Assembly (NCBI GenBank): GCA_963768655.1
Contig: CAVYIM010000009.1
Coordinates: forward strand, 192,001 to 256,000
Reading direction: 5' to 3'
Origin: an uncultured Chloroflexia bacterium
Lineage (GTDB): Bacteria > Chloroflexota > Limnocylindria > Limnocylindrales > CSP1-4
Length of the DNA stretch: 64,000 nt
Positions 42,933 through 43,165 of this stretch are shown piece by piece. Position 1 is the first letter of the stretch. Every line of letters starts with the position of its first letter. The position numbers and the translations under genes were made by a program. The notes under the pieces are model-generated. The model was not told the DNA's origin. It ran no database searches and saw only the letters and a program-made list of their open reading frames with translations.

Positions 42933-42973
42933 GAAACAAAGAACCGCGGCTCCTGTCTGGAGTCCGCGGCCCC
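42933..42973 (-). terminator. Intrinsic terminator (attenuator) in the metY leader
   Basis: Minus strand GGGGCCGCGGACTCC-agaca-GGAGCCGCGGTTCT-TTGTTT. Confidence 0.85.
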
Positions 42974-43015
42974 GGGACCGATCCTCAGCTCAGTGGCGCG
43001 TCCAACGCCGGAGCC

Positions 43016-43126
43016 TCAGACCCCGTCCTCCGCACTTCGGGGCCGCCCGGGCATGGACATCATGGAACCGCGCAGGCACGAGGCCTGGCGCGAGTTCTCC
43101 CGGTGGCGCGAAGTGCGGGCGTTCAT
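43016..43126 (-). CDS. Putative methionine-sensing leader peptide MNARTSRHRENSRQASCLRGSMMSMPGRPRSAEDGV (36 aa)
   Basis: ATG ATG TCC ATG cluster; ATG 9 nt after a -10 box; followed by terminator and metY. Confidence 0.75.
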   Translation of the reverse strand: MNARTSRHRENSRQASCLRGSMMSMPGRPRSAEDGV

Positions 43127-43135
43127 TGGCCGCGA

Positions 43136-43165
43136 AGCATAGGGGCTCCGCGGCCAATTGCGCAA
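43136..43165 (-). promoter_or_regulatory. Sigma70-type promoter TTGCGC-N18-TATGCT of met operon
   Basis: Motif match; same geometry as dap leader promoter. Confidence 0.65.

Follow-up and report, generated by a model that had tools for sequence, protein, structure and literature searches.

A candidate methionine-codon leader-peptide attenuator upstream of metY-metX in uncultured Limnocylindrales

Methionine genes are usually under the control of S-adenosylmethionine (SAM) riboswitches, T-boxes or protein repressors. Which of these, if any, governs the metY-metX genes in a 64,000-nucleotide (nt) stretch of DNA from an uncultured Chloroflexia bacterium of the order Limnocylindrales (GenBank assembly GCA_963768655.1, contig CAVYIM010000009.1, positions 192,001 to 256,000; referred to as the window, within which all positions are counted) is the question addressed here. 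The genes are preceded on the minus strand by a 376-nt gap, from the end of a MacB/FtsX permease gene (43196) to the metY GTG (42819), which contains the whole leader. The sequence-only reading of the window had seen no recognisable SAM riboswitch or T-box there and had proposed that ribosome stalling on the Met codons of a short open reading frame (ORF) senses the charging of elongator Met-tRNA. The first point was borne out by our scans: a search of 42600-43400 against Rfam at E ≤ 10 returned only scr5239 at a meaningless E = 8.1, the T-box model (RF00230) found no match in the leader, and the SAM-I and SAM-IV models (RF00162, RF00634), which did detect the control genomes, found no match anywhere in the source genome (88.6 % complete). 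For the second we arrive, on the strength of comparative sequence analysis, at a probability of roughly 0.75 that the leader is a ribosome-mediated leader-peptide transcription attenuator of metY-metX whose signal is the charging state of elongator Met-tRNA, joined in most relatives by that of Cys-tRNA. This proposal draws its support from the retention of start codon, frame and Met cluster, from a swap to Cys codons ahead of cysE, from relatives with a divergent arm sequence and from the lack of a riboswitch or T-box match. The parts of the leader and the genes behind it are as follows.

43136..43165, minus strand: promoter-like site, with -35 TTGCGC (43165-43160), an 18-nt spacer and -10 TATGCT (43141-43136), followed by 9 nt between the -10 and the leader-ORF ATG at 43126
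43016..43126, minus strand: leader peptide ORF of 36 codons, MNARTSRHRENSRQASCLRGSMMSMPGRPRSAEDGV, with the stop codon TGA at 43018-43016
43038..43114, minus strand: genus-specific upstream domain (alignment columns 13-19/98-103 and 22-30/84-90, hairpin 32-46/52-64)
43063-43052, minus strand: sensor codons ATG ATG TCC ATG (Met-Met-Ser-Met)
43016..43046, minus strand: antiterminator 5′ strand, GCGGCCCCG (43046-43038) and then the GGAC and GGUCU segments
42981..43015, minus strand: variable hairpin at the tip of the antiterminator helix
42966..42980, minus strand: antiterminator 3′ strand, GGUCC and then CGGGGCCGC (42974-42966), shared with the terminator 5′ arm
42932..42971, minus strand: intrinsic terminator, stem (GG)CCGCGGACUCC / GGAG-CCGCGG(UU) with loop AGACA; 5′ arm CCGCGGACTCC (42969-42959), loop (42958-42954), 3′ arm GGAGCCGCGG (42953-42944), U tract TTCTTTGTTTCT (42943-42932)
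42969-42932, minus strand: the terminator hairpin read through, CCGCGGACUCC-AGACA-GGAG-CCGCGG and then UUCUUUGUUUCU
42820..42931, minus strand: read-through 5′ untranslated region (5′ UTR) of metY, with the Shine-Dalgarno sequence GGAGGA at 42829-42824
42819-41482, minus strand: metY, O-acetylhomoserine sulfhydrylase (TIGR01326, 672 bits against a cut-off of 495)
41479-40193, minus strand: metX-like acetyltransferase gene (best match TIGR01392, 286 bits, under the cut-off of 500)

Three elements of this anatomy had already been described from the letters alone and all lie where they had been placed: the arrangement TTGCGC-N18-TATGCT-N9-ATG, the 36-codon ORF with ATG ATG TCC ATG and one Cys codon (TGC, upstream of the Met cluster), and GCGGCCCCG as the exact 9-bp complement of CGGGGCCGC, which overlaps the terminator 5′ arm. 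The ORF has no Shine-Dalgarno sequence. The antiterminator 5′ strand sits within it and ends at its stop codon, with the sensor codons 8-17 nt ahead of that strand, and the terminator stem contains one bulge. The 266-nt leader folds at -146.7 kcal/mol (z = -4.93 against shuffled sequences), and this value together with the conservation of the arrangement in more than 100 genomes indicates that the leader is more than a chance structure.

The sensor codons carry most of the argument. We collected 141 loci, which reduced to 122 unique leaders, and found at least two Met codons among the five codons 5′ of the antiterminator arm in 117 and at least one in 121, so that the Met cluster, whose conservation in metY leaders had been singled out as a check, is indeed conserved. 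The commonest patterns were.MCM. (76 leaders), MM.M. (24) and.M.M. (10). Outside the source genus the sensor reads ATG TGT ATG (Met-Cys-Met) with the Cys codon alternating between TGT and TGC, which makes it probable that sulfur amino acids are read jointly; variants carry expanded sensors of four to seven Met codons, for example MRMAMGMQMMQM, MDMWMCLSMCMCRM and QMPCAMCPCMGM. When 118 unique leaders were classified by their first downstream gene, the 90 leaders of metY all contained Met, 89 of them at least twice, whereas the 10 leaders of cysE all had two Cys codons and no Met. Leaders ahead of OsmC-like genes were Met-Cys-Met in all 10 cases, those ahead of beta-carbonic-anhydrase-like genes were MCM (4), C.C (1) or MC. 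(2), and the single leader without a recognised gene downstream was Met-Cys-Met. All 10 cysE leaders come from one genus and thus represent a single evolutionary event.

The cysE-cysK leader is present in the source genome itself (contig C3, minus strand, about 580480-580790; locus L213:2180-2490), where a promoter-like site TTGACG-N18-CATGAT is followed after 6 nt by the ATG of a short ORF, MDSHNHNCLCPWRRPRRRR, ending in a stop codon and carrying Cys-x-Cys at the position homologous to Met-x-Met. Its arms are GGCGGCGGCCCCGCCG and, on the 3′ side, CCCAGGGGCCGCGG, and a terminator and U tract follow. Behind it lie a serine O-acetyltransferase gene (L213:1253-2140; NCBIfam EpsC-type, 157 bits against a cut-off of 150) and cysK (L213:225-1202; TIGR01139, 365.8 bits against 350.95). 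Cross-matches between them in BLAST mark the cysE and metY leaders as homologous. The cysE leader occurs in 9/9 sampled genomes of the genus with Cys-x-Cys retained and one in-frame 3-nt indel, in tallies that include the unpublished genomes G245 and G348. The unit surfaced in a genome-wide script for combinations of promoter, short ORF and terminator (4 matches); the script disallowed bulged stems and missed the metY leader for that reason, which leaves it uninformative on attenuators for other amino acids. A third, weak leader match in the genome (C3:902556) was set aside as a chance match within coding-like sequence.

In other genera the leader also precedes OsmC-like genes (PF02566; L050, L057, L058, L062, L069, L074, L080) and beta-carbonic-anhydrase-like genes (PF00484; L071, L072, L090, L112, L132, L138, L143), which stand on their own or with metY behind them; the leader is present twice in some genomes, and Met codons are at times fewer in the carbonic-anhydrase copies (CLC, MC.). 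Together the metY, OsmC-like, carbonic-anhydrase-like and cysE leaders suggest a small sulfur-related regulon. In other families of the class, metY orthologues stand behind a Met/Cys short ORF and a terminator with a different arm sequence; the short ORFs are MTHRRCACRMAMPQRGRSVSPP and MHPDHHVPHYTTMCMPWRPRRLEDCA, each closed by a stop codon, and one containing ACICMPERPHG (loci L244 and L245 in family f3, L253 in family f4). Seven metY paralogues of another family (L246-L252), directly behind a metX-like gene, had no leader in the 330 nt examined. Sensor codons that match the pathway and a short ORF that outlasts the RNA sequence around it both point to tRNA sensing by a ribosome, and a riboswitch predicts neither.

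Signs of translation can be sought in the ORF itself. Within the genus it keeps the same start and stop and is open in 20/20 genomes, with 6 nt inserted in frame in one leader (L018), where they add Cys-Thr. The ORF is shorter in other genera, typically M-x-H-T-x-V-S-W-x-M-C-M-R-W-R-P-R-R-A-E-D-G-V, and the 117 short ORFs give 101 distinct peptides of 21-41 amino acids in which internal Met accounts for 9.0 %, Cys for 3.8 % and Arg for 20.9 % of the residues. A TTGnnn-17/18-nAnnnT site was found in 92 of the 122 unique leaders, the -35 lying beyond the extracted segment in 20 genus sequences. In 90 of these 92 the first ATG or GTG past the -10 shares its frame with the Met cluster, against a chance expectation of one third; 74 leaders have 9-10 nt between -10 and start, and 15 have 6-8 nt. 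Distances from start to arm fall into 10 classes, 8 of which are multiples of three. Among the 75 leaders of the commonest spacing the start codon is ATG in 49 and GTG in 26, its first base being only A or G, and variation is concentrated at third positions at Thr4, Cys11 (TGT/TGC), Arg13/17/18 and Asp21. Start codon, frame and Met cluster are thus kept while the N-terminal part varies in sequence and length. The sequences are related by descent, so these ORF and codon counts are not independent events. A start 6-10 nt past the -10 and the lack of a Shine-Dalgarno sequence suggest that the short ORF is leaderless or nearly so.

The element is widespread in one part of the order. BLASTN found the leader in 23/24 other genomes of the genus (E ≤ 4e-30, 72-87 % identity), the sole genome without a match (G004) being 83 % complete, and the promoter hexamers are positionally conserved in 20/20 genus leaders; the leader was absent from 16/16 small sister-family genomes. 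Of 301 sampled genomes of the order (tallies that include the unpublished G245), 140 matched, with 139/258 in family f1, 0/42 in family f2 and 26/39 genera represented. Leaders from outside the genus align only between the Met cluster and the terminator. When about 186,000 species genomes were scanned for the exact pattern, at least 120 places matched; among the 80 fetched, 76 are leaders, nearly all from Chloroflexota or Candidatus Limnocylindria/Limnocylindrales metagenome-assembled genomes (MAGs). The other four (two Streptomyces, one ‘Actinobacteria UBA5182’ and one MAG) are chance matches without leader features and were excluded from all counts. Within the class the exact core pattern occurred in 40/91 sampled f1 genomes versus 0/209 genomes of four other families, and a reversed-pattern control in the class sample gave 0 matches. 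Contigs from RNA libraries of relatives (4 runs from 4 studies, 85-95 % alike) map to 42929-43146 and to metY, and one extends upstream of the leader ATG, although such metatranscriptome contigs can show neither starts, ends, levels nor ribosomes. The segment 42842-42907 that they leave uncovered is variable UTR and the gap carries no meaning; 20 metatranscriptome runs contained only small shares of the window’s words.

The two competing RNA structures are recovered from separate sets of leaders. RNAalifold folded the 20 genus leaders into the antiterminator form and 60 short leaders from other genera into the terminator form. The antiterminator of the genus consists of the top helix (columns 91-97/164-170 of the genus alignment), in which 7/7 pairs are invariant, GGAY/GUCC and GGUCU/RGAUC segments, and a tip hairpin that covaries at columns 122/149 (UA to CG in 7 sequences) and 126/146 (GC to CG in 6). 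Its lower helix has 17 pairs with 97.3 % of cells paired and three pairs changed on both sides, and between genera it appears as GUCUG/CAGAC, CCGAG/CUCGG and CCUGGG/CCCAGG. In the terminator stem, pairs switch from GC to AU in 25 and in 13 of the 60 short leaders and from CG to UA in 21; within the genus the change is CG to UA, in 5/20. Over all helices of the genus alignment 96.3 % of cells are paired, versus 26-50 % with slid partners; seven pairs are changed on both sides, and 0/500 shuffles equalled the observed covariation score. The stem covariation that had been put forward as a check therefore holds for the terminator and the lower antiterminator helix; the invariant top helix shows none. 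The genus-specific upstream domain, which can sequester the antiterminator 5′ arm, is missing from the shorter leaders of other genera; its P1 helix is paired in 85 % of cells with one compensatory UA to GC change (L017). In the short leaders, two local hairpins could, in the folding model, keep the arms apart.

From this anatomy, its conservation, the helix covariation and the match of sensor codons to pathway we infer a transcription start, translation of the ORF, a kinetic order and a response to Met. Transcription would begin at the ATG of the 36-codon ORF or a few bases upstream of it, and the ribosome would load without a Shine-Dalgarno sequence. With Met plentiful it would pass the Met cluster and reach the stop codon within the antiterminator 5′ strand, where on kinetic and steric grounds it would block zipping of the antiterminator helix and prevent nucleation from the tip hairpin; CGGGGCCGC would then pair into the terminator hairpin and transcription would end at the U tract (42943-42932). 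With Met-tRNA scarce the ribosome would stall at the first Met codon, some 14-17 nt before the arm, and leave the entire 5′ strand free, so that the antiterminator could form and RNA polymerase enter metY. We folded transcripts cut before the terminator 3′ arm, for 66 short and 25 genus leaders, with the ribosome footprint masked, and took the mean probability of the top helix. Without a mask it was 0.51 in short and 0.24 in genus leaders, and with the first Met codon in the A site 0.88 (above 0.5 in 60/66) and 0.60. With the last Met codon in the A site, where the mask covers the arm, it was 0 in both sets, and with the ribosome at the stop codon 0.68 and 0.60. These values suggest that a stall at the first hungry codon would favour the antiterminator.

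A methionine sensor of this kind must also contend with the need for Met in initiation. In the short leaders of other genera the untranslated RNA, too, would tend toward the antiterminator, and since these leaders have no anti-antiterminator, initiation that fails for lack of Met would likewise end in read-through. Read-through on both failed initiation and a Met stall would remove the initiator-Met paradox. A broader proposal, which we entertain only tentatively, is that the leaders are interchangeable ‘sulfur amino acid’ attenuators built on one RNA chassis and re-targeted through their sensor codons, Met-x-Met for metY, Cys-x-Cys for cysE-cysK and mixed forms for OsmC-like and beta-carbonic-anhydrase-like genes, with the paradox avoided in this way. 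If it were true, termination under plentiful Met would be secured by the invariant Arg-rich tail (RPRR), which would slow the ribosome or keep it on the antiterminator arm, and the conserved blocks beyond the terminator would supply a second level of control, at translation.

Several observations weigh against attenuation by a translating ribosome. The invariant 9-bp top helix yields no covariation. A stall at the last Met codon would put the ribosome over part of the arm, and a ribosome at the stop codon leaves the top helix possible at the probabilities given above, so that termination under Met-replete conditions rests on the kinetic and steric argument. At equilibrium the full transcript favours the terminator under every ribosome mask (P ≥ 0.80), a preference that is expected of an attenuator but uninformative. 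In the genus, the ORF shows no third-position excess (entropy 0.358, 0.233 and 0.231 at codon positions 1, 2 and 3), and differences from the consensus comprise 37 synonymous versus 89 non-synonymous changes. The +2 frame is likewise open, in 18/19 genus leaders and 88/90 of the wider set, and as that can happen in GC-rich DNA an open frame alone proves nothing. The usual gap of 9-10 nt from -10 to ATG suggests a 2-3-nt leader and not a strictly leaderless mRNA, and leaderless genes are predicted in only 4/12 Chloroflexi genomes, at about 4.7 % of genes, in the part of the survey drawn on here (PMC3160421). Neither promoter nor terminator of the metY leader was picked up by a simple consensus scan, whose output was 0 promoters and one unrelated terminator-like site within the upstream gene, and the promoter hexamers are weak matches to the E. 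coli consensus, which is a caveat on the promoter call.

Among the alternatives, sensing by the nascent peptide survives best, though we judge it unlikely. In this case the ribosome would be arrested or slowed on the antiterminator arm by the R-P-R-R-x-E-D-G tail, with free Met, SAM or some other small molecule as the signal, much as in TnaC with tryptophan. The C-terminal RPRR.EDG is invariant in 75/75 short leaders while its Arg and Asp codons vary mainly at third positions, the N-terminal H-T-x-V-S-W is conserved with synonymous Thr codons, and Arg supplies a fifth of all residues as noted above (20.9 %). However, the same nucleotides form the antiterminator arm, which is sufficient to explain the invariance; the Cys-type leader retains RRPRR but has RR and a stop in place of AEDGV, and the Met/Cys codon swap fits tRNA sensing better.

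Somewhat less probable again is a metabolite riboswitch whose ligand is SAM, Met or another sulfur metabolite, with the long conserved helix and the internal loop GUGCGGA as its aptamer, the terminator as its expression platform and the ORF as incidental. Such an element would account for the extremely conserved nucleotide blocks, the strong structure (z = -4.93), the asymmetric internal loop GUGCGGA, which is invariant and has no pairing partner, and the missing third-position bias of the genus ORF. Apart from finding no Rfam model at E ≤ 10, it leaves four features unexplained: the in-frame ATG or GTG right past the promoter (90/92), the expansions of Met codons, the Cys-for-Met swap ahead of cysE-cysK and the Met/Cys short ORFs retained despite a different arm sequence.

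We regard it as very unlikely that termination or antitermination is governed in trans by a factor bound to the conserved leader, be it an RNA-binding protein or uncharged tRNA. Invariant single-stranded motifs (GUGCGGAGGA) offer a candidate binding site, and three sub-threshold T-box-like matches exist elsewhere in the genome. The leader itself has no T-box match, its upstream neighbours are MacB/FtsX and ABC ATPase genes with no candidate regulator gene linked, and the features of the short ORF would go unexplained. Least credible of all is that nothing is regulated and the hairpin is a chance structure or the terminator of the upstream ABC-transporter operon, since, although GC-rich DNA gives many spurious ORFs and the +2 frame is open as well, a conserved promoter-like site stands about 220 nt upstream of the terminator, and the unit is conserved across 26/39 genera and travels in different contexts with metY, OsmC-like, beta-carbonic-anhydrase-like or cysE genes and not with the ABC transporter.

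The proposed attenuator follows the general scheme of the classical proteobacterial examples trpL, hisL, leuL, thrL, pheL and ilvL, as outlined in the accessible text of two reports (bioRxiv 10.1101/834739, PMC8079986): a short ORF rich in codons for the product, mutually exclusive antiterminator and terminator hairpins with a U tract, and a stop codon at a position from which the terminating ribosome would block the antiterminator. It differs from them in sensing Met and Cys, in its Chloroflexota host, in matching no Rfam leader family, and in an ORF that starts 6-10 nt past the -10 without a Shine-Dalgarno sequence; the short leaders moreover lack an upstream ‘region 1’ and, when left untranslated, are predicted to give read-through. 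The same kinds of genes (metY, metX) are also controlled through premature termination by SAM riboswitches and Met T-boxes (RF00162, RF00634, RF00230), but these sense the ligand or the tRNA directly, unlike the ribosome-based sensing proposed for the metY leader.

Leader-peptide attenuation is classic for other amino acids and barely documented for methionine. Met leader peptides are nevertheless not wholly unprecedented, as the portions of two reports drawn on here contain single-genome predictions for Streptomyces and Deinococcus (PMC8079986, PMC4007540). For S. lividans TK24 a predicted leaderless ‘metL’ peptide (ending CMCRRMCAF) precedes metNIQ, with the terminator unclear (PMC8079986); it shares with the metY leader a predicted leaderless short ORF with alternating Met/Cys and Arg-Arg before a methionine-related operon, but it precedes a transporter, and the likeness is one of description. 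In D. deserti a leader peptide of 48 nt is predicted upstream of the methionine-tRNA ligase gene (PMC4007540), likewise leaderless and methionine-linked in that account but ahead of a tRNA ligase gene and predicted from one genome. The polycysteine leaderless short ORFs of mycobacteria, according to the part of the preprint considered, act on translation and not on transcription termination (bioRxiv 10.1101/834739). The cysE-cysK leader resembles them as a leaderless-type Cys-sensing short ORF ahead of sulfur and cysteine genes, but the mycobacterial ORFs have consecutive Cys codons, sequester a Shine-Dalgarno sequence and have no terminator, whereas the metY and cysE leaders carry Met-x-Met or Cys-x-Cys, followed by a terminator and its U tract, and so do not belong to that class. 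A 2005 survey, in its accessible portion, reports no RNA element before the methionine operons of Actinobacteria and mycobacterial Cys leader peptides without terminators (PMC1262725).

Our literature search, which did not cover subscription journals, found nothing relevant on this element in Chloroflexota or on a metY leader peptide. What is probably new here, judging by the comparative evidence, is a family of near-leaderless, Met- and Cys-sensing leader-peptide attenuators in Limnocylindria. Its comparative support is much broader than that of the earlier predictions, with more than 100 genomes, a clean terminator/antiterminator pair and a Cys-codon paralogue as a natural control. The hosts are an uncultured soil and peat lineage of Chloroflexota in which gene regulation is essentially unstudied, and the family offers a system for asking how a Met-sensing attenuator copes with the need for Met in initiation and how sensor codons swap in evolution. 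Annotation would also benefit, as the metY short ORFs and leaders are missing from Rfam.

A number of further observations concern the surroundings of the leader. The metY 5′ UTR contains conserved blocks, CUCCGG after the U tract, ACGUCGGAUGGCCGCC and CCCGGGAC. CUCC(G) directly follows the U tract in 111/120 leaders and is complementary to GGAGG in the short ORF and to the metY Shine-Dalgarno sequence; a block CGnCGGG-n-CCGCC, complementary to the antiterminator 5′ arm, occurs in 92/120, and CCCGGGAC is complementary to GUCCCGGG of the 3′ arm. These blocks after the terminator (42820-42931) may represent a second layer acting on translation or on RNA refolding. An inverted repeat, UUGGCCGCGGAG...CUUCGCGGCCAA (43127-43158, minus strand), covers the promoter spacer, the -10 and the start region; it is found in the source genome and its closest relative and is not kept in the remaining genus, and it could be an operator or a chance occurrence. 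The metX-like ORF (40193-41479, minus strand) is 428 amino acids as listed, but its family match starts only at about residue 94-106, which suggests either a true start codon further downstream or an N-terminal extension of the protein. The three T-box-like matches lie on other contigs (C5:495568-495877, C7:239039-239285 and C5:25695-25815) and score 53.5, 41.4 and 27.5 bits, all under the Rfam cut-off of 93. The only Rfam family in the 64-kb window is a thiamine pyrophosphate (TPP) riboswitch at 16669-16779 on the minus strand, with 72.4 bits against a gathering score of 54.3.

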